DNA of 62,428 bases, counting the filler, from Diploschistes diacapsis (lineage: Eukaryota), in the NCBI GenBank assembly GCA_023645945.1. It is 18 parts of 18 records of this genome, joined end to end, with 100 filler letters (N's around TTAATTAATTAA, not from the genome) between each part and the next. Parts side by side here need not be neighbours in the genome. Positions count along the whole stretch, not along the records: positions 51,446 to 53,567 come from JALAIB010002358.1; 17 more parts are not named here. One strand, written 5' to 3'. The position numbers and the translations under genes were made by a program. Positions 33,493 to 59,995 of this stretch are shown here, in pieces (the first letter of the stretch is position 1; the number at the start of each line of letters is the position of its first letter). The notes under the pieces were generated by a model that was given only the letters and a program-made list of their open reading frames with translations, made no database searches and was not told the DNA's origin.

Positions 33493-33592
33493 NNNNNNNN
33501 NNNNNNNNNNNNNNNNNNNNNNNNNNNNNNNNNNNNTTAATTAATTAANNNNNNNNNNNNNNNNNNNNNNNNNNNNNNNNNNNNNNNNNNNN

Positions 33593-35031
33593 ATTATAAG
33601 CCGAGTACTGCCTTAACAACAGATATAAGGAAATTAGGAAGATTTAAAATATATAATTATTTAATAACGAATTACTGAATTATGTTAAAAAAATTAAGAT
33701 CTTAAAAAAGAATCCTTAATAAAAAGGGAGGAGATAAAATCTATTTATATACGGACGATTTTAGGACACGTAAACCCTTTAGGAAATTAAATCACGTCAA
33801 AATCGGACCTTTTTTTATCGATAAACAACCTGTCATACCGGACGAAATCAAACGAGTCAAGTATCGACTCAGGCTACTAAAGGACGTAAATGTTTATCTA
33901 GTGTTTTATTTTAAATACCTCGAACCAGCATATCTAGACATATTATTATAGAAAACCTTCTATTTCGAATTAAATAACGAAAACGAATACGAAATCGAAA
34001 GAATTATTAACGTAAAAGAAGGCAGATATCGAGTCAGATGGAAAGGATACCTAGAAAGTTAAGATATATAAGAACCTTCGGCGAATTTAATTAATTATAA
34101 AGATAAGTTTAAGGAGTTTTACGATATTTATCCGTTAACGGATTGATCGATATAAAACCAGCGGGATACCTCAAGAACTTAAAGAACTATAAAACAAATC
34201 ACGGAATATAAGAAAAAAGAAAAAGGCAGAAGAAGGGATTAATTTTAGTAAGAATTGAATCCATTATCTCCGCGACGGTATAGATGGATCGAACAAGGGT
34301 TCGATATATTTATATAATAGCATCACGACGCTTTAACCGCTGAGCTACAAAACCATATATAAAGAAATATATATAAACCAGTTTTTATATCTCAACCTTA
34401 TTATTATTTCTTAGTTCCCAGTTTATTGATAAAAACAATAAAATAATTAAATATTATAAATCTTAAAAATTACCCGTAAGCACCGTATTATTATTCGAAT
34501 CCTCAGCCGCCTTTACCTTATCATCCAATTAATCGGCCAGGTACTTCGCTTACTCGATAAATTTCTTTTCAATTAACTTAAAAGTTTTGCGCAGTTTCTC
34601 TATACGCGCCTCATGCTCGACCAACTAAAAAAAGAGTTTTCGTCTTTTCTTTTCTTTTATTTCTAATCGGGATTCTACCTAAAAGCGAACCCTATCTACG
34701 GCTTTTTAGGACATTAATACGCAGTTCTTTCGACCTAAACGGGCACATCTTTCATAACGAGAAGATATAAACGGCATTACGACGCAGGCGTGAATAATAA
34801 AACAATAAAAACAAAAAAGATTTAAAAGTTTATTCAATTTAAAAATACGATCGATAAGTTTATGATTACGAGAAATTAAAAAAGATATCGTTATCCCACG
34901 ATTTAAAATTCTTTTTTTATTTAATACTGATATTAGATTTTCCGGCGAATCATCGGGCCGATAATACTAAAAAAAAATATTACGATCCGAGATCCCGACC
35001 TCGTCACGTCTTAACCGCTCGTTATATAACT
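33593..35031 (+). mobile_element. Chromovirus (Ty3/Gypsy) 3' region: integrase tail, chromodomain, antisense ORF, PPT, start of 3' LTR (34978)
   Basis: GDKIYL...KLNHVKIGPF (GPY/F), VYLVFY; chromodomain EYEIERII...YRVRWKGY...EPSANL from 33985; A-rich PPT then TATTACGATCC. Confidence 0.9.
34300..34888 (-). pseudogene. RIP-mutated antisense accessory ORF of Gypsy element (six-Cys motif + coiled coil)
   Basis: CFYCFIIHACVVMPFISSR(Y>C)ERCARLGRKNCVLMS(*>W)KAVDRVR...EHEARIEKLRKT; stops are RIP-type; homologs at 51987-52508 and 39336-39500. 3' end approximate. Confidence 0.7.
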
Positions 35032-35639
35032 TAGGCTGGCCGTCAGTGTCAGTGTTTTAGATTTTTTTGTTGCGGTGTCAGTGTCCGTGGATTCACGGAA
35101 ATGCAGTGTTCGTGTTAGTGTCCGTGTTTTAAATTTTTTAGCTGCGGTGTCCGTGTCCGTGCTTTTATTATAGTATAGTATTAATGTTAATGTCCGTATT
35201 TTAAAAATTTTTGCTGCGATATCCGCGTTGATAGATTTACGAAAATATAATGTCCGTATCCGTGTATTTATCGAAATATTTTTTTTAATAATTCTAGAAT
35301 TATTACGTCTATTTCTTACGCTTTTTTTTTTAAAAAAAATTTCACTGCGGTGTTCCGGTGAATTTATTATAATATTAATATTAATATTAATATTAATGGA
35401 TTTACGGAAATGTAGTGTTAATATTAATGTTAATATTTTAGATTTTTTAGCTGCGGTATTCGTGTCCGTGTTTTCACTATAATATAGTATTAGTGTTAAT
35501 ATTAATGTTTTAGATTTTTTAACTACGATGTCCGTGTCCGTGCTTTCACTGCAGTGCAGTGTCAGTATCAGTGTCAGTATTGAGAAAAATTTTGCTGCGG
35601 TGTCAGTGTCAGTGTCAGTGGCACGGAACGGCCAGCCTA
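35032..35639. mobile_element. hAT-type MITE with 8-bp TSD ATATAACT, inserted in an LTR
   Basis: TAGGCTGGCCGT...ACGGCCAGCCTA; ATATAACT at 35024-35031 and 35640-35647. Confidence 0.93.
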
Positions 35640-36099
35640 ATATAACTTCGATAACGCAAAATCACGTAATTAATAGACGGCCAGCGATAAATGTTTATCG
35701 CGATAAATCTATTTAAATAAATATTTATCNNNNNNNNNNNNNNNNNNNNNNNNNNNNNNNNNNNNNNNNNNNNTTAATTAATTAANNNNNNNNNNNNNNN
35801 NNNNNNNNNNNNNNNNNNNNNNNNNNNNNTTATTAAATGTACGACATCGTTAAAAGTCCGGATCCACGGGTATATTAAAATTTTTATTTTTATTATTATC
35901 GAGATAATAGAATACGACGTTAGTTTAAAAAATCCGTGATTGAATATTTATAATTTAACGATTAATTTTAAAATACGGACTTTTAAATTAAACGGATGTA
36001 CGTATATTAATATATCCCGTTTATACGTAATTATAACGACTACGGTAAAAAAAAGAAAATATTATGCGATACTTTTTAAACCGGAATCAAGAAAACCCA

Positions 36100-38065: not shown

Positions 38066-38498
38066 TATACACGAGTAAAATTAAAATAAGTTTAATCTCT
38101 GTTAAAAAAAGAATATAAATAAGAAAAAAAAATAGAACAATTATAAATCTTAAATTATCTTTAAAAAAAGATTTTTTAAAAATAAAAATAACGAATATAA
38201 ATTAATTTCGAATAATAATTAAGGATGTTTATAAAAATGAACACGCTTTCTTTTACGGAGGTAGAGTCGTGTTTATATATAATTAATTCGCTCGCCGTTT
38301 ATTGTAAGTTTAGCGAGCGGTACTTTCGAGGCTCGCCGTTTACGAGAATAAGCGCGACCATCGAGCGGTGGCGAAAGCTTGCTCGCCGCTTATAAGAATA
38401 AGCGTGAGCAGTGAGCATGTCACGTGACCTCCCGTCCCGTGACTGGTCTATATATAACAAAGCTGGGACGTGCCAAGTCTGGTACTTGGATCGTAACA
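38066..38498 (-). mobile_element. Gypsy LTR (U3 variant B)
   Basis: Ends CTTGGATCGTAACA; reverse complement of 52603-53057. Confidence 0.85.
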
Positions 38499-38775
38499 AT
38501 ACGCCATTATTCTATGCGTATGTTTTTTTTTGTATCTTTACTCGAGTAATAGATTTTATTATTTTTCTTATACGTAAGAATGATCCGTCCGTCGCTATCG
38601 TATAGATATAAACCGTTTTAATCAAAACTTCCCCATAATCTTGCCGTTTTGATCAAAACTCCCCCGTAATCCTGCCTTACATAACTTCTATTCCGATAAG
38701 AGATTGCTTTTAGTTCAAAGAAGTCCATAATATATCCTAAATGCAGAATATCGGAACCTAATCTTTCCAGTGTAG

Positions 38776-39500
38776 TGTTATGATCTCTATCTCTACAATG
38801 TAGACACGAGGTATTGATTAAGGTGATTTGGTTTCTGTTAGAAGAAGAGTGTGGTAGGAAAAGAAGTAGATCGGTTATAAGTTTATATTAATTTTTAGAA
38901 AGATTATTATCCGTCGATAAAGAATAACGAATATAAATTAATCTCGAGTAATCGTTAAAAATGTCTATAAAAATAAATATACCTCGATTTAAAGAAGTTA
39001 TAGCGGTATTCTTATATAATTCAAAGCGACAGCTGGTTGCCGACAGCAGAACTGCTACGATAAAGCTGTTATTAATAAATAGTTGTTTAGATAAATCTGT
39101 CCCTAACAGACGTCTGTTATTGAATGTTTGTTAATCACGTGACCTAACGTCCGTAATTGGCTATATATAAAGAATCATTAGGAAATACCCGACCAGTTAT
39201 GAAATACTAAATGAACTATTATTTAGTTATTTGGATCGTAATATTATCTCCTTCTTTCAGCCTTGTCGGCCCGATAAGCGCCGAAGGATAAACATAAGTA
39301 CTAAATAAAAGAAAATCCCAAGTCGTAAGATAACGATATCTTTTTCAACTTCTCGTAACTATAAACTTGCTGATTAAATCCTTCGAGCAGGTAAAACCGC
39401 TGATTTCTTTTATTTTTATTATTCAGTTTCTTACCGTTATGTTATTATACCATTTATCTCTTCTCGTTATAAAAGATGTGCTCGTCTTAACCGAAAGAAC
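38776..39500 (-). mobile_element. Gypsy 3' LTR (38776-39243), PPT and start of antisense ORF (39336-39500, + strand)
   Basis: TGTTATGATC...GATCGTAATA; adjacent pyrimidine tract is the PPT on the minus strand; ORF relic ...PFISSR(C)KRCARLNRKN. Confidence 0.85.
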
Positions 39501-39887
39501 TAGGCTGGCCGTCACTGACACTGACACTGCCGGTGTCAGTGACACGGATACCGTAGTATTAGTGTTAGTATTTTAGATTTTTTTATTGCGGTGTCCGTGT
39601 TCGTGAATTCACGGAAATATAATGTCCGTATTAGTATCCGTATTTTAAATTTTTTAATTACGGTGTCCGTGTTCGTAAATTCACGAAAATATAATTTCCG
39701 TATTAATGTCCGTGTTTTAAATTTTTTAATTACGGTGTCCGTGTTCGTGGATTTACGGAAACATAATATCCGTATTAGTATCCGTGTTTTAAAAAGTTTA
39801 ATTACGGTGTCCGTGTTAGTGTCCGTGTTTTAAAAATTTTTGCTGCGTTATCCGTGTTAGTGTCCGTGGCACGAAACGGCCAGCCTA
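39501..39887. mobile_element. hAT-type MITE, short 387-bp variant, no matching TSD
   Basis: Both TIRs present; ~57-bp internal tandem units; flanks GAAAGAAC and ATCTACCC differ. Confidence 0.85.
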
Positions 39888-40570
39888 ATCTACCCTACGT
39901 ACAGCCACCTTACCACATTATCGTATTTTATTTTTTATAATTCTAATTACTTTACCTTTCTTAAAAACGACAATCCGACAAAATAACACGTTTTTCGCAA
40001 CGTATACGTAGAATAAACCCACGTAACTAAATCAGAATAAAAGAATGTAAAAGAAAGAAAAGAAATAAACGATCTAAAATTATTTTCCTTAATAAATAAG
40101 ATTTAGATTATATCGAAGTAAAGAAAGAAACTCGTAGTCTAAAATTAAAACATTAATAAACGACTCGTTAAAACAAGAAAATAATTTTAAATCTATATTA
40201 CNNNNNNNNNNNNNNNNNNNNNNNNNNNNNNNNNNNNNNNNNNNNTTAATTAATTAANNNNNNNNNNNNNNNNNNNNNNNNNNNNNNNNNNNNNNNNNNN
40301 NCGTAATAGATATATTAAAATCTAGAAATCTTATTTTAAAAATAATTTTATTATATAGACTTTTATATCTCACGGGACTCGCTAAGTTTTATAATTTATA
40401 TTATATTTAATCGGTTTAGTTAGGATTTTATCGGATTCTGTAAGATTTAGTTGAATTAAACTGAATTAAACCTCGGTAAGTTCACTTAAACTGAACTTTC
40501 CGGGTTTTCTTAGTGAACCTCCCGGAATAAGCTGAGCTCACAGCCATGCCTTCCGTCTGCTTGTTCAATA

Positions 40571-42536: not shown

Positions 42537-43515
42537 GAATTTATAAATATCTAAAAGAGATCATTAGCGATAAAAATAAGCTCTTTACTTTAAGATACTA
42601 AAAAATTATAATAAAGACGTTCGGCACGAAGTTAAAGTATTTAAACGTTTATTACCTATAAATAGACGGTTAAATAAAAAGAATAAATTAAACTTTTAAA
42701 TAATACGAGAATTGTTAAAAGAATAAGTATTCTACGTATAAAAGATACGGGATTTTATAAATCATTAAGAAACTAGATCAACCATAAAAGACAATCACGA
42801 TAAACTTCATAATTAAACTATTAATATCTAAGGATCCAATGATAGGTGTTTCATATAACAACATTTAGGTTATAATAAACAAGTTTAATAATAAACCGTA
42901 TTACATACCTTTTAAAAAAGATTATAACGCAAAAGCATTATATCACATATAGACAAATCGAATTGTAAGAATTTATAAATATTTAAACGAAATTATTAAC
43001 GATAGAAATAAACTTTTTATCTCAAGATATTAGAAAATTATGATGAAAGCGTTCGGCACGAAGCTGAAGCATTCAAACGTTTATTATCCATAAATAAACG
43101 GTCAAATAAAAAAAATAAATCAAACTTTTAAACAATATTTACGGCATTACGTCAACCAGAATATAGATAATTAGATTAAATTATTATTAAACGCCGAATA
43201 TTATCTTAACAATAAATATAAAGAAGTTAAAAAAATTCAAAATACGCAATCATTTAACGACGAGATACTAAAAAATACCAAGAGATATGCGGTCTTAAAA
43301 AAGAATTTTTAGTTAAAGAAGGAGGATAAGGTCTATTTATATACGGACAACCTTAAGATACGTAAACCTTTTAAAAAATTAAATCACGTCAAAATCGAAC
43401 TTTTTTTTATCGATAAATAACTCGTCATACCGGACGAAATTAAACGAGTCAATTACCGATTCCGGCTATCAAAAGACGCGAAAGTTTATCCAATATTTCA
43501 TTCCCGATACCTTAA
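42537..43515 (+). mobile_element. Gypsy integrase relic with internal duplication
   Basis: EIISDKNKLFT, AYY(P)*TDG*(T)KR(M)N*T, LRHYVNQN, GPF tail; core segment present twice. Confidence 0.85.
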
Positions 43516-48704: not shown

Positions 48705-49120
48705 TAGGCTGGCCGTTTCATGCCACGGTCACTGACACGGACACTACAGCAAAAAATTTCAAAACACGGACACTGACACGGACACTACACTGCAGTGAAA
48801 GCACGGACACGGACACTGCAATTAAAATTTTTAAATATTGATACTGATACGGACACTGCACTTCCGTGAATCCACCGAAACACCGCGGTGAAATTTTTTT
48901 AAAAAAATAAAAGCGTAAGAAATAGGCGTGATTATTCCAGAATTATTAAAATTAAAAAAATATTTTAAAGTGTTTCGGTGAATGCACGGACACGGACACG
49001 GCAGTAAAAATTTTCTCGGCACGGACACTGACACGGACACTGCAATTAAAAATTTTAAAATATTGATACTGACACGGACACTGCACTTCCGTGAATCCAC
49101 CCACACGGACACTGTAGCTA
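48705..49120. mobile_element. hAT-type MITE, left part
   Basis: TAGGCTGGCCGTTTCATGCC TIR plus ACACGG arrays; cut by contig end. Confidence 0.85.
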
Positions 49121-49220
49121 NNNNNNNNNNNNNNNNNNNNNNNNNNNNNNNNNNNNNNNNNNNNTTAATTAATTAANNNNNNNNNNNNNNNNNNNNNNNN
49201 NNNNNNNNNNNNNNNNNNNN

Positions 49221-49604
49221 GATATTATATTATAATAAAAGCACGGACACGGATATTACGATTAAAAAATTTAAAACACGAATACATTTATGGATGTTAT
49301 ATTATAATAAATTTATCGAAATATTATCGTGAATTTATCGAAATACCGCGATAAAAAAATAAAAACGTGAAAAAATAAACGTAATAATTTTAAAATTATT
49401 AAAAAATAAATATTATTTAAAATTATTTCGATAAATATACGAATACGATAATAAATTTATTAATATAAATATTACGATTAAAAATTTTAAAATACGGATA
49501 TTTTTACGGATATTATATTATAATAAAAGCACGGACACGGATATTACGGCTAAAAATTTTAAAACACGGATACTGCCACGGCCGTGTCCGTGACGGCCAG
49601 CCTA
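49221..49604. mobile_element. hAT-type MITE, right part
   Basis: Ends GTGACGGCCAGCCTA. Confidence 0.85.
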
Positions 49605-51345: not shown

Positions 51346-51445
51346 NNNNNNNNNNNNNNNNNNNNNNNNNNNNNNNNNNNNNNNNNNNNTTAATTAATTA
51401 ANNNNNNNNNNNNNNNNNNNNNNNNNNNNNNNNNNNNNNNNNNNN

Positions 51446-53057
51446 CTATTATCAAACGCCGAATACTACCTTAATAACAAACACAGAGAAATTAAGAAAA
51501 TTTAAAATATATAATCATTCAACAACGAGACATTAAATGATATTCAGAGACACGCGGTCTTAAGAAAGAATCCTTAACTGAAAAAGAGGGATAAGGTTTA
51601 CCTATATATAAATAATTTTAGGACACGTAGACCCTTTAGAAAGCTCGATCACGTCAAAATCGGACTCTTTTTTATCGATAAACAATTCGTCATACCGGAC
51701 GAAATTAAACGAGTTAATTATCGATTCAAGCTATTAAAGGACGCGAAAGTTTATTTAATGTTCTATTTTCGGTACCTCGAATTAACATATCTAGATATAC
51801 CGTTATAAAAAACCTTCTACTTCGAACCTGATAATAAAAATGAATACGAAGTCGAAAAGATTCTAGATAATAATTTTAAAGGATTTCTTATTAAGTAGAA
51901 AGGATACCCGTCGGAATAAAACACGTAAGAACCTTTAAAAAACTTGAGCAACTGCGGGAATAAAATAAAAGAATACCGTAGATTTATTAGTTAAGGAAGC
52001 CAGCTGGCTATATAGCGGTATTTTTACTTAATAAAGGCAACTCCTCGGGATTATTAGCGAAGAAGAATGGATTCCCGTTAAGAATCTCCGCCTTAAACAT
52101 CGATATATTAATTATAATGCGACCTAGATCTTTATTTTCCGCAGCTAATGATTCCGTTAAATATTCTGTTTTTGTATTAACATAGATTTATGCTTTTTAT
52201 AAAAGAAGTTTGTTTCGCTCGATGCGACGAGTAAGTTTAAGAAATCGGTTAGTATTTTCTTGTATAAACCGTTTTAATATATCTTATGTTTGTTCTAAGC
52301 GAGCCTATGATATTTCTACGTAAGGACGATTACGGCGTACATATTTCGAATATTTCAGGATTTTAGAACCGGATGGTATAACGAAACAGGACTTATCGTT
52401 AAAAAAATAATGTTTATAAGAAGAAGTAATAAAGATTTTGTAACGAGCGATGGAACGGGAAAGTTGGATTCGTTCAACGGACCGGTTACGAGAAGTTAAA
52501 AGAGATATCGTTATTTTACGACTTAGGATTCTCTTTTGTTTAGTATTTATATTAGATTTTTCGGCGAATCATCGGGCCGATGATACTAAAAAAAAGGGAT
52601 AATGTTACGATTTAAATACTAGACTTAACACGTCTTAGTTTTATATATAGATTAATCACGGGATTAGGGGTCACGTGATGCGTTTATTACTCGCGTTTAT
52701 TTTCGTGAGCGGCGAGCGAGCTTTCGCTATCGCTCAACGATCGCGTTTATTTTTATAAACGGCGAGCTTCGGGGGCATCGTTCGCTAAACTTACGGTAAG
52801 CGGCGAGCGAGCTAATTATATATAAGCACGACTTTATTTTCGTGGAAGAAAACGTGTTCATTTTTATAAATATCTTAAGTTATTACTCGGGATCAATCTA
52901 TATTCGTTACTTTTATTATCTTAAAACCTTCTTTCTAGAAACAGTCCAAGACTTATAACTACTCTATCTTCTTTTCCTACCACATTCCTCTTCTAACAGA
53001 GACCAAACCCACCTTGATCCTACTCGTGTATACCTTGTATAGATAGAGATCATAACA
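51446..53057 (+). mobile_element. Chromovirus 3' region: integrase tail, chromodomain, antisense ORF, PPT, 3' LTR (52603-53057)
   Basis: KLDHVKIG, EYEVEKILD...FLIK(W)KGYPSE*NT(W)EP..NLSNC; PPT AAAAAAAGGGATAA; TGTTACGAT...GATCATAACA. Confidence 0.92.
51987..52508 (-). pseudogene. RIP-mutated antisense accessory ORF, ~170 codons (six-Cys motif + coiled coil)
   Basis: One frame: S(C)KH(C)FFNDKSCFV(M)PSGSKILK(C)SK(C)VRRNRP(C)VE(M)S(W)ARLE...LTRRIERNKLLL; bracketed residues restored by reversing G>A changes. Confidence 0.7.
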
Positions 53058-53667
53058 TACAGGAAATCGGCTTGAACGTACGATCTAATCCCTGACGCCA
53101 GATTAAATACTCGAGGATTTTTAAGAATTAATCTAAGCGAAAAAACAGCGTATATGTTTCGTACTTTAAGAAACATTATGGACAAAAAAGAATACCTTCG
53201 AAAAAAAGCCCTTATCGTTAATAATCGGAAACATTTAAATTATATACTTTTTAATAAATACGGAAATTTCGGGTGCGATTATTCCAGACACGAAACATTA
53301 ATATACGTCCTTTATAAAAAGATAATTATTAACGTAACATTCCAACGATACTATAAAGAAATACTATATAATAATAAATACGAGGATTATTATCTTTTAT
53401 ACGACTATAAGATAAAAAGATGTCCGATTAATATCCATAACGGAAAATAAAAAAAAAAAAAAACGTATCCATTAATAATAAAAGGAATTATTATAATAAT
53501 AAAATTCTATTTCGCATACAATATTTATCGTATAAAAAAGTATAAATATTTAGATCACGCGGAATTCNNNNNNNNNNNNNNNNNNNNNNNNNNNNNNNNN
53601 NNNNNNNNNNNTTAATTAATTAANNNNNNNNNNNNNNNNNNNNNNNNNNNNNNNNNNNNNNNNNNNN

Positions 53668-55783
53668 GGTTAATAATAAAACCTATTATAATTATCATAA
53701 GAAGAAATACTTCGTTAATAATTACCCCGATCGCGAATTCAAGTCTAGAAAAAAAATAATTTTTATATAAGCTTTAAATAAAGGATCTAACGTATAAATA
53801 AGCGATAACGACGATGAATCGTTTTAACGGCATAATCGAACGATTATAAAAGCTTTAAATAAAAAATTCTTAACGGCGCCCGCCCTTACGTCAGATGCAA
53901 TATTAAAGAAAAAATATAAAAGCTTTAAGACTTCGACGCTAATTAATACGGAAATTAACCAAATATACTTTATCGATAAAAAATTCGCCGAATATATTAA
54001 AAAACGATTCGACCTCGCCTCGATAAAGCTATCAAAAAAAAATATTTACGTCGACGATAAATTATAGAAATCGATCTAGGCTGGCCGTTTCGTGCCACGG
54101 ACACTGACACGGATACTGCAGCAAAAATTTTCTCGGCACGGATACTGACACGAACACTATACTGCGGTGAAAGCAGGGACACGGACATCGCAGCAAAAAA
54201 TTTTAAAACACGGATACTAACACGGACACTATACTATAATAAAAACACGAATACAGACACCGCAGCAAAGAATTTTAAAACACGGATATTAATACGAACA
54301 TTATATTTCCGTGAATCTACGGACACGGACACCGCAGTATAATTTTTAAAAAAATAAAAACGTAAGAAATAAACGTGATAATTTTAGAATTATTAAAATA
54401 AAAAAGTTATTTAAAAATATTTCGATAAATACACGGACACGGATATTATAATAAAAAAATTTTCGATACGGACACGGATACGAATATTATATTATATTAA
54501 AAGCACGGACACGGACACTGTAGCAAAAAATTTTAAAACACGGACACTAATACGGACACTGCACTTCCGTGAATCCACGGACACGGACACCGCAGCTAAA
54601 AAATCTAAAACACGGACACTGACACGGCCGTGTCAGTGTCAGTAACGGCTAGCCTAAATCGATCATTTACGTCTTCTATCTATTAATCCAGCTAAAGAAC
54701 AATTCTAGCAATATAACATTCTTTTATATCTTATTGAAGATCGGGAAGCACCGCGTGATTATTAATAAAAATGACTTCACCTATATAACGCGGTAATAGA
54801 CTACGTTATTTCTAAAATAAGCTTCAAACCGAATCATTATAATTACTTAAGGTTACCTTCGGTCAAGAAACGAAAGAAAAGCGAAAGAATTTCAGCTATT
54901 CTTCGACTAAATTCCGAATTAATTAAAAACGACAGACCTTTAATCATCAAGATCTTACTACATGGTATAATAGATAAAGATAGTAGAATTAATATAAAAG
55001 ATTTAATTTACTTATCCGCCCCTCGTAAAACCGATAAACGAACTTATATGAATAATAATTCTAACCGAATCTTCGCGATTAACGCTATAGCCTTTAATGT
55101 CGCCAGTCGATAAACCGGGATAGAAATCTTTATCATCTCGATAAAAGAAATTAATTAATAATTACAAAAAAAGAAACGATAAGAAATGATAACGAAGAAC
55201 CTTCGCGATTTAATATTTAAAGATTATCACGATTATTTAAACGTGTTTAGTTATAAAAAAGCTAACGAGCTGCCCCCGTATCGATCATAATAGAACTATA
55301 AAATCGAACTAAAGAAAGAGGCCGTATTATTTAAATCAGTCCCATTAAATAGAATATCGATAGACGAACTATAGGCACTAAAGATCTATTTAAAAAAATA
55401 TTCACTAAATAAGTTTATTACGTTTAATTTAGTAGAATACGGGTCTTCGATCCTATTCGTAAAAAAACCCAACGAAAACGGATTAAGAATATATATCGAT
55501 TATCGAAGATTAAATAACATCACGAAAAAAAATCGATACCCTTTATTTCTAATCGCCGAGACGATAGCCCGAAGAACCCGAGCGAAGATCTATATTAAAT
55601 TTAATGTTATTTAAACGTTTTATCGATTACGAATAGTCATTAATAAAAACGAGAAATTATCGACCTTTTCGACGCCTCTAACCGTATGTAAGTTTAAAAT
55701 AATACCTTTCGGATTAACGACGGGTTTTAGCTCGTATTAATAGTTTATAAACGATAACTTTAACGATCTAATCGACTTCGTAT
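53668..55783 (+). mobile_element. Gypsy gag-pol relic (protease, RT N-terminus), interrupted by hAT MITE
   Basis: Protease TLINTE (LIDTG)...YFIDKKFA; RT SSILFVKKPN.NGLRIYIDYRRLNNITKKNRYPL, IPFGLT. Confidence 0.9.
54077..54656. mobile_element. hAT-type MITE with 8-bp TSD AATCGATC
   Basis: TAGGCTGGCCGT...ACGGCTAGCCTA; AATCGATC at 54069-54076 and 54657-54664. Confidence 0.93.
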
Positions 55784-59765: not shown

Positions 59766-59995
59766 TTGGCTGGCCGTTTCGTGCCACGGTCACTAACACG
59801 GACACTACAGCAAAAATTTTCAAAACACGGACACTGACACGGACACTATAGTTAAAATTTTAAAACACGGATACTAACACGGACATTATATTTCCGTAAA
59901 TTCACGGACACGGATACCGCAATTAAAAAAATCTAAAACATTAATATTAACACGGACATTTTATTATAATAAATCTATCGAAATATTACGGTAAA
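59766..59995. mobile_element. hAT-type MITE left part, interrupted by an LTR-like repeat starting TGTTGAGC at 59996
   Basis: TTGGCTGGCCGTTTCGTGCC plus ACACGG repeats. Confidence 0.8.

Follow-up and report, generated by a model that had tools for sequence, protein, structure and literature searches.

LTR retrotransposons (LTR, long terminal repeat) are usually described as gag-pol machines. The locus studied here raises the question of whether a further gene, read from the opposite strand, lies next to pol. It belongs to a chromodomain-containing Ty3/Gypsy element of the fungus Diploschistes diacapsis (assembly GCA_023645945.1), within a stretch of 62,428 nucleotides, filler included, which was analysed as a whole and is called the window below; all positions count along it. 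In this element, a reading frame damaged by repeat-induced point mutation (RIP) runs antisense to pol in the interval that separates the pol end from the polypurine tract (PPT). The original prediction, made from the DNA alone, took this frame and two further copies of it for an accessory gene encoding a Zn2Cys6-like module and a coiled coil. We consider it likely, with a probability of about 0.8, that the frame at 52008..52508 (minus strand) is a RIP-inactivated accessory gene, placed antisense between the pol end and the PPT in an ascomycete chromodomain Ty3/Gypsy lineage, and that it encodes a predicted Zn2Cys6-like protein, a putative regulator.

An antisense reading frame between pol and the 3' LTR

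The focal copy (c2) is carried by a contig that occupies positions 51446-53567. The 3' end of pol, encoding the C-terminus of the integrase and a chromodomain, extends over 51446..51994 (plus strand). It is degraded by RIP, its translation (P0004) containing 7 internal TAA/TAG stops ahead of the terminal stop at 51992-51994; the Pfam Chromo domain (PF00385) was found in residues 134-178 with 31.1 bits. The antisense open reading frame (ORF) comprises 166 codons at 52008..52508 on the minus strand (translation P0001), supported by hhalign, tblastn and a codon table. Its first codon is ATA (52506-52508), a RIPed ATG, and it is interrupted by four internal stops, a TAG at residue 68 and TAA at residues 75, 104 and 107. 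The frame probably ends at the TAG at 52008-52010; if this TAG was itself made by RIP, the end would be the TAA at 51987-51989. With the former, the stops of pol and of the antisense frame are 13 nt apart. Upstream of the antisense frame, a block of 94 nt (52509..52602, supported by blastn) contains the leader of the antisense gene (79 nt upstream of the first codon) followed by the PPT, AAAAAAAAGGGATAA, at about 52587-52602. The 3' LTR (52603..53567, plus strand) begins with TGTTACGATT, reaches the end of the contig and shows LTR similarity to piece 8 of the window in reverse orientation. The order claimed in the original prediction, with the antisense frame between pol and the PPT, was thus recovered in the focal element.

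The second copy (c1) has the same arrangement. The pol 3' end with the chromodomain region is at 33595..34146 (plus strand), with a TGA stop at 34144-34146, the antisense ORF at 34394..34888 (minus strand; P0002; hhalign, tblastn, exhaustive HMMER), and the 3' LTR at 34978..35729 (plus strand), where 72-nt tandem repeats occupy 35045-35550. The ORF of c1 starts with ATA (34886-34888) and has 7 internal TAA/TAG stops; five of the six Cys columns described below are still TGY. The third copy (c3) belongs to an element in reversed orientation and consists of only the first 55 codons, at 39336..39500 (plus strand; P0003; tblastn). Measured inwards from the LTR edge, the distance to the first codon is 95 nt in c2 (edge at 52603), 90 nt in c1 (34888 vs 34978) and 93 nt in c3 (39336 vs 39243), in agreement with the value of about 90 nt noted beforehand.

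These copies are on three unlinked contigs (33593-35729 for c1, 38066-40201 for c3 and 51446-53567 for c2). When the whole window was searched by tblastn with 15 intact proteins of the family described below, exactly three loci were found, at 34475-34876 (minus), 39336-39500 (plus) and 52029-52337 (minus), and no further locus of the window was matched below an E-value of 0.1. The number of copies announced at the outset was therefore confirmed.

Comparison of c1 with c2 indicated that they represent two subfamilies, with 79 of 132 residues identical in the pol ends and 31 of 164 (19%) in the antisense ORFs. The bodies of the two ORFs could not be aligned as DNA, yet the ORF is placed identically in both elements. 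The original prediction had described the two longer copies as very divergent with a retained Cys pattern, and this is what we found. In contrast to the ORF bodies, the block that begins with the first codons of the ORF and ends with the PPT showed 85.6% identity over 111 nt (blastn, piece 14, 1041-1150, vs piece 6, 1274-1384).

Intact relatives of the antisense frame

No match was obtained by a Pfam scan of the RIPed translations of the window copies, nor by a word-indexed protein search with c1. An exhaustive HMMER search of 1.84 billion representative sequences with the c1 translation (P0002, with X at the stops) returned 16 proteins at E ≤ 1e-3, 3 of them at ≤ 1e-10, the best with an E-value of 6.8e-23. 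Three of the 16 (P0005, P0009 and P0015) also show degradation, in that Tyr stands where Cys is expected; apart from these and P0010, the matches are intact small proteins with their own Met and stop. P0010 (552 residues) was excluded from all alignments, as it contains seven repeats that match a 29-residue stretch of the helix only, and is likely of low complexity. A profile search added five relatives (P0022-P0026) and a search with P0007 added P0028-P0030. The intact relatives are 140-217 residues long; one 90% cluster has 11 members, and many of the family proteins are encoded by contigs of 0.9-2 kb. Look-ups by name returned only 'hypothetical protein' for all family proteins. The nearest clusters in the ESM Atlas (52-646 members, no common Pfam domain) are likewise unnamed 'hypothetical protein' entries of Ascomycota, which provides a lead, and a lead only, to an Ascomycota-wide spread.

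In nine intact members (25-53% identity), the invariant residues are M1, I15, P25, C26, C29, C35, C45, C48, C56, S60 and W61. The family motif is C-x2-C-x5/6-C-x8-11-C-x2-C-x6/7-C, preceded by P and followed within 3-4 residues by SW. The copies of the window share this Cys/SW motif, the similarity over the Cys module and the helix, and the antisense position. Comparison with hhalign aligned c2 with the profile of one subfamily (A4) with a probability of 96.5% (E 9.9e-10, residues 9-148) and c1 with the profile of the other (A5) with 99.2% (E 2.4e-19, residues 5-165). The best tblastn E-values on the window copies were 1.5e-25 for P0029 on c1, 1.5e-5 for P0016 on c2 and 1.5e-5 for P0012 on c3.

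The similarity is specific for the reading frame. We compared all six frames of the region of an intact ORF on a metagenome contig (L001, see below) with the three regions of the window. Only the ORF frame matched (E 2e-6); it has 0 stops in 197 codons, while the other five frames contain 2-11 stops each and gave E-values of at least 0.75. These results support the conclusion that the antisense frame is a genuine, conserved gene of chromoviral Gypsy elements.

Damage by RIP, read column by column

The RIP-dead copies can be read because natural intact relatives restore the columns of the alignment. In the focal copy, the segment with the Cys cluster lies at 52320..52418 (minus strand; codon table on alignment A2). 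The codons of its six Cys columns are TAT, TAT, TGT, TAT, TAT and TAC, with a spacing of x2, x6, x11, x2 and x6. More generally, the six Cys columns, invariant in the nine intact relatives, are TGY or TAY in every copy of the window (YYCYYY in c2, CCCYCC in c1 and YYYYC- in c3, in one-letter code), so that the Cys pattern is indeed conserved across copies as had been proposed. The helix has a seventh Cys, which is conserved in most members; c1 and c2 both have TAY in its place. The invariant Trp of the SW motif (W in 9/9 intact relatives) is replaced by TAG in c2 (52305..52307, minus strand, from the codon table) and by TAA in c1, and the first codon, opposite Met, is ATA. All the stops in the three translated stretches (7 + 9 + 2) are TAA or TAG, none being TGA. 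The departures from the family (Cys to Tyr, Trp to stop, Met to Ile) are exactly the G-to-A changes that RIP makes at TpG. The earlier claim that the frame is broken only by codons of the RIP type holds for all these positions.

The number of stops alone is not decisive, because it does not separate the antisense frame from one of the sense frames. Both of these have 5 stops in the c2 region (mean after shuffling, 13.2) and 6 in the c1 region.

An intact copy in an independent element

A second scan of metagenome contigs yielded a single locus, L001, a contig of 1120 nt with an intact antisense ORF of 197 residues (406-999, P0027). This ORF is met on the opposite strand by the convergent end of pol, which is open and in which a Chromo domain scores 45.9 bits. 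In reverse complement, the sequence upstream of the ATG reads AAGAAGGGGATAA followed by TGTTAGGG, i.e. a PPT and the start of an LTR (TGTTAG), 76 nt from the ATG. The distance from the start codon to the LTR edge is therefore 76-95 nt across L001, c1, c2 and c3. The same position and orientation, which the original prediction had proposed to look for in other fungal Gypsy elements, were thus found in another element with an intact frame.

Other scans were unproductive. The scan of metagenome contigs based on P0006 gave 594 pattern matches and those of viral contigs based on A4 and A5 gave 31 and 85, respectively, none of which was confirmed.

In L001, pol and the antisense ORF overlap at their 3' ends by about 130 nt on opposite strands (869-999), where the focal copy has a gap of 13 nt instead.

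Predicted fold of the protein

An AlphaFold2 model of P0018 computed with 16 aligned relatives had a mean predicted local distance difference test (pLDDT) score of 84.5. The model contains a helix at residues 8-23 and a long helix at 65-135; between them, two short helices occupy 32-36 and 51-56, a CxxC marking the start of each. A model of the domain only (residues 1-75, 11 sequences) showed the same elements with a pLDDT of 79.3. In the long helix, hydrophobic residues recur with a conserved periodicity of 3.5-3.6 residues, which was matched by only 1 of 2000 shuffles, and the helix that had been proposed is supported. By this periodicity it is amphipathic and compatible with a coiled coil, through which the protein may pair.

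Foldseek gave no match to the PDB at E ≤ 0.001. With the whole model, the first 16 rows listed were all Zn2Cys6 domains (Put3, Hap1, Pho7, Ppr1, AlcR, Gal4, Leu3 and the CBF3 complex, which contains Cep3), and with the domain model this was true for the first 15 rows listed. The best match was Pho7 (E 0.22, probability 0.94, root-mean-square deviation 2.6 Å over 39 columns). Zn2Cys6 structures also came first in a second fold search with an independent exhaustive aligner, with weak scores. VIA-align on the whole model retrieved generic long helices only. The consensus spacing of the Pfam family Zn_clus (PF00172), as given in PROSITE and the literature, is C-x2-C-x6-C-x5-12-C-x2-C-x6-8-C. It fits the subfamily of the focal copy (x2, x6, x8, x2, x6 in P0018; x2, x6, x11, x2, x6 in c2). 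In the other subfamily (c1, P0006, P0008, P0012, P0020 and P0007), the first loop is x5 rather than x6. Weak Zn_clus matches (E ≤ 10) were obtained with 6 of the 16 intact proteins scanned, all of the x6 subfamily (18.7, 12.1, 11.7, 10.8, 9.7 and 7.8 bits), those of P0018 (30-63) and P0027 (26-61) being in register.

Taken together, the models point to a predicted fold that resembles the Zn2Cys6 binuclear cluster, with a long amphipathic helix after it. Membership in PF00172 is not established, as the best score was 18.7 bits for a gathering threshold of 21 bits. The resemblance put forward in the original prediction is supported by the predicted fold, Zn2Cys6 domains coming first in both fold searches, with weak scores.

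Proposed function and alternative explanations

The encoded protein would consist, in this order, of a short N-terminal helix, the six-Cys Zn2Cys6-like module, the SW motif, an amphipathic helix of about 70 residues with a basic patch (R-x-R-K-V-L-K), and an acidic tail. As the ATG is only 76-95 nt from the LTR edge, with the PPT between them, the antisense mRNA would start in or next to the U3 region of the 3' LTR, or else result from read-in from outside. The protein is expected to bind zinc and to pair through its long helix, and would be a small nuclear regulator that binds DNA and controls transcription of the element itself (or of the host). Because the order of the parts is that of the DNA-binding regions of Gal4, Put3 and Hap1, we infer that a dimeric DNA-binding regulator of the element LTR is the most economical reading.

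A wider proposal can be made, that of a widespread lineage of chromoviruses with its own minimal Gal4-type factor (zinc cluster, dimerising helix and acidic tail), expressed backwards from the 3' LTR and acting on LTR sites such as CGG-bearing 72-nt repeats in U3. We regard this proposal as tentative, and rather doubtful in its full extent.

Several observations weigh against the main explanation. Zn_clus remained below its gathering score of 21 bits in all 16 intact proteins scanned, and among these no Zn_clus match was found throughout the x5 subfamily. In profile searches of the PDB, the best match was only Pho7, with E-values of 0.049-0.89, and it was partly out of register, the halves of the match having changed places; non-significant matches of the same order were also obtained to coiled coils and to C2H2 fingers. 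Canonical Zn2Cys6 proteins have basic residues between Cys2 and Cys3, where the x5 subfamily has acidic or hydrophobic ones. A DNA contact like that of Gal4 is therefore doubtful for half of the family, to judge from the first loop. Finally, the element context outside the window rests on the single 1120-nt contig.

Some of these points are shared by the best of the alternative explanations, according to which the gene is real and borne by the element, but its product does not bind DNA. The Cys module would then be a zinc-stabilised interaction knob and the helix an adaptor for the RNA of the element, for Gag, for the integrase or for a host silencing factor. This is a serious rival, because the x5 subfamily lacks the basic first-loop residues and has an acidic or hydrophobic Cys2-Cys3 loop instead. 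The Pfam Zn_clus threshold was never reached, and the ORF diverges much faster than pol (31/164 vs 79/132 identical between c1 and c2), as do proteins engaged in conflict with the host. However, all the top structural matches are a DNA-binding Zn2Cys6 domain followed by a helix, in the order seen in Gal4, Put3, Hap1 and Ppr1, and the x6 subfamily retains K/R in the first loop and gives the in-register matches to Zn_clus. On balance we consider a protein of this kind possible, if somewhat unlikely.

A second alternative sees in the frame a piece of a host gene for a Zn2Cys6 transcription factor, captured once by the elements of this genome or simply adjoining them, and not a standing gene of the element lineage. 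The fold does resemble host Zn2Cys6 proteins, and genes for these are very numerous in ascomycetes. On the other hand, the ORF has the same position and orientation in two element families, in spite of an identity of only 19%, and in an unrelated element from a metagenome. The relatives are small but complete, each having a Met and a stop of its own. There is no long transcription factor among the 16 HMMER matches, the single long protein (P0010) matching through its repeats only. This explanation is largely refuted and we judge it very improbable.

The last alternative, a chance open frame or the shadow of sense-strand coding in AT-rich RIPed DNA, could be invoked since one sense frame is as poor in stops (5 vs 5 in c2, 6 vs 6 in c1), but it is refuted by the exhaustive HMMER search and the six-frame control, the homology being significant and frame-specific, the Cys columns invariant and the AlphaFold2 models confident, and we give it practically no chance.

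Composition and other features of the window

Runs of N occur 34 times in the window, each exactly 44 letters long, and stand in pairs on either side of TTAATTAATTAA, which makes 17 N44-TTAATTAATTAA-N44 linkers (e.g. 2145-2244, 33493-33592 and 51346-51445) and 18 pieces. Seventeen of these are 2115-2144 nt long and follow each other in descending order of length; the remaining one is 24,533 nt long (8960-33492). The window is an artificial chain of unplaced contigs, and the adjacency of its pieces is biologically meaningless.

The short pieces are mostly AT-rich (GC content 0.29-0.39), with dinucleotide indices resembling those of RIPed DNA. In the focal piece, TpA/ApT was 1.09 and (CA+TG)/(AC+GT) 0.53, and the corresponding values in the 24.5-kb piece were 0.77 and 1.24. 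From two public sequencing runs, 13,989 and 35,158 contigs were placed on the focal contig, and the variable places were transitions in 614 of 642 cases with one run and in 454 of 490 with the other. Together with the three degraded HMMER matches and the 90% cluster of 11 members, these figures link the family to repeated DNA. Two further runs (X3 and X4) contained next to no sequence matching the focal stretch. The run that ranks first as a source of this DNA bears the label lichen metagenome and may be the one from which the assembly was made; no RNA run was listed for the stretch. The long, non-RIPed contig at 8960-33492 carries ordinary fungal housekeeping genes, encoding Rft1 (split over two frames, probably through an intron), a DEAD-box helicase, a zinc-type alcohol dehydrogenase, the large subunit of RPA, a UBP-type deubiquitinase and a sugar transporter.

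A block of about 110 nt, made up of the first codons of the antisense ORF, the leader and the PPT, is conserved in all three copies (52486-52602, 34866-34977 and 39244-39358). It contains a GC-rich near-palindrome, CGGCGAATCATCGGGCCGAT. This block may act in cis, either on plus-strand priming or on the antisense gene.

The 72-nt tandem repeats with CACGGACACGGA-type motifs found in U3 beside c1 (35045-35550) are also present at 39556-39868 and, on other contigs, at 48705-49131, 49227-49599, 54077-54627, 59766-59896 and 1543-2116. CGG triplets are the usual contacts of Zn2Cys6 proteins, and the CACGGACACGGA-type motifs are in this respect candidate Zn2Cys6 sites. At 39500, c3 is cut off by DNA with 72-nt repeats in opposite orientation relative to the ORF (39500-39560); this truncation is probably due to a nested LTR insertion.

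A third similar pol end (43182-43515), on the contig at 42537-44670, is interrupted near 43510, within the part that encodes the integrase/chromodomain region. LTR-like sequence follows directly after this break, and no antisense ORF is left there.

Significance and comparison with known systems

The kind of gene described here is already known, and the copies of the window add new members to it, all of them dead. Novelty may lie in the definition of the family as a whole, in the Zn2Cys6-like model and in the evidence of a spread over Ascomycota. The 2011 observation in Botrytis, mentioned below, becomes in this way a testable family, for which there are intact sequences and a profile, together with a structural model of good confidence and boundaries with respect to the PPT and the LTR. 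Reading RIP-dead copies through intact relatives should also help to annotate the AT-rich compartments of fungal and lichen genomes. If the protein is a true regulator, fungal elements would themselves bring the means to control transcription or silencing by the host. Should it be a true Gal4-type factor, its gene would correspond, in a retrotransposon, to regulatory genes of retroviruses like HBZ or Tax, and the elements might spread promoters that respond to Zn2Cys6 factors among the genomes of fungi.

The original prediction left open whether such a gene had already been described. As far as the passages cited below go, an antisense gene at this site, brtn of Boty-like elements, has been in print since 2011 (Zhao et al., Virology 417:248). 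This gene resembles ours in its host element (a chromodomain Ty3/Gypsy element of a filamentous ascomycete), in its position between pol and the 3' LTR and in its antisense orientation, to the extent that these passages describe it. The copies studied here differ in that they come from another host and are dead through RIP. According to one passage, BcGypsy1 carries brtn (PMC8365987); the name 'brtn' was not found in two supplementary files of the same paper. Another counts the Boty ORF, in Botrytis and Sclerotinia, among the ORFs that run antisense between pol and the 3' LTR, and states that its function is unknown (PMC7264820). Elsewhere, a Boty-like element is described with gag, RT, IN and CHROMO domains and brtn-106 (PMC4227169), a Monilinia transcript is said to resemble both a truncated Pol and BRTN (PMC5987419), and a figure legend on fungal elements marks an 'add. 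ORF, unknown function' (PMC2864245). Matched by position, orientation and element type, as given in these descriptions, the present family is most probably the same as the brtn family. We found no description of a Zn2Cys6-like cluster in a fungal antisense retrotransposon ORF in the literature searched, and the 2011 brtn paper may contain one.

Antisense ORFs with the same position and orientation in the element are also described for the plant Ty3/Gypsy elements Grande, RIRE2, Retand and PvRetro13, in a passage that reports them as conserved within families and of unknown function (PMC7264820). Unlike the present family, these belong to plants and mostly to lineages other than chromoviruses, and that passage makes no mention of a zinc cluster; a relationship in sequence is not expected.

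With the Zn2Cys6 domains of Gal4, Put3, Ppr1, Hap1, Leu3 and Pho7, the family shares the six Cys with a spacing of x2, x6, x8-11, x2 and x6 (in the subfamily of the focal copy) and, in the models, two short helices each starting at a CxxC and a helix after the cluster. It differs from them in that the linker between cluster and helix has only about 4 residues and the helix about 70, in the lack of a middle homology region, in its small size (140-217 residues), in being encoded by a retrotransposon, in scoring below the Pfam threshold and, in one subfamily, in its x5 first loop.

A last comparison is with HBZ of human T-cell leukaemia virus 1 (HTLV-1) and ASP of human immunodeficiency virus 1 (HIV-1). 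There is no homology, the DNA-binding fold is another one and the hosts are animals. The likeness is an analogy only, in that these too are minus-strand genes that start at the 3' LTR; HBZ, which modulates transcription from the LTR, is small and nuclear and combines a basic region with a zipper for dimerisation.

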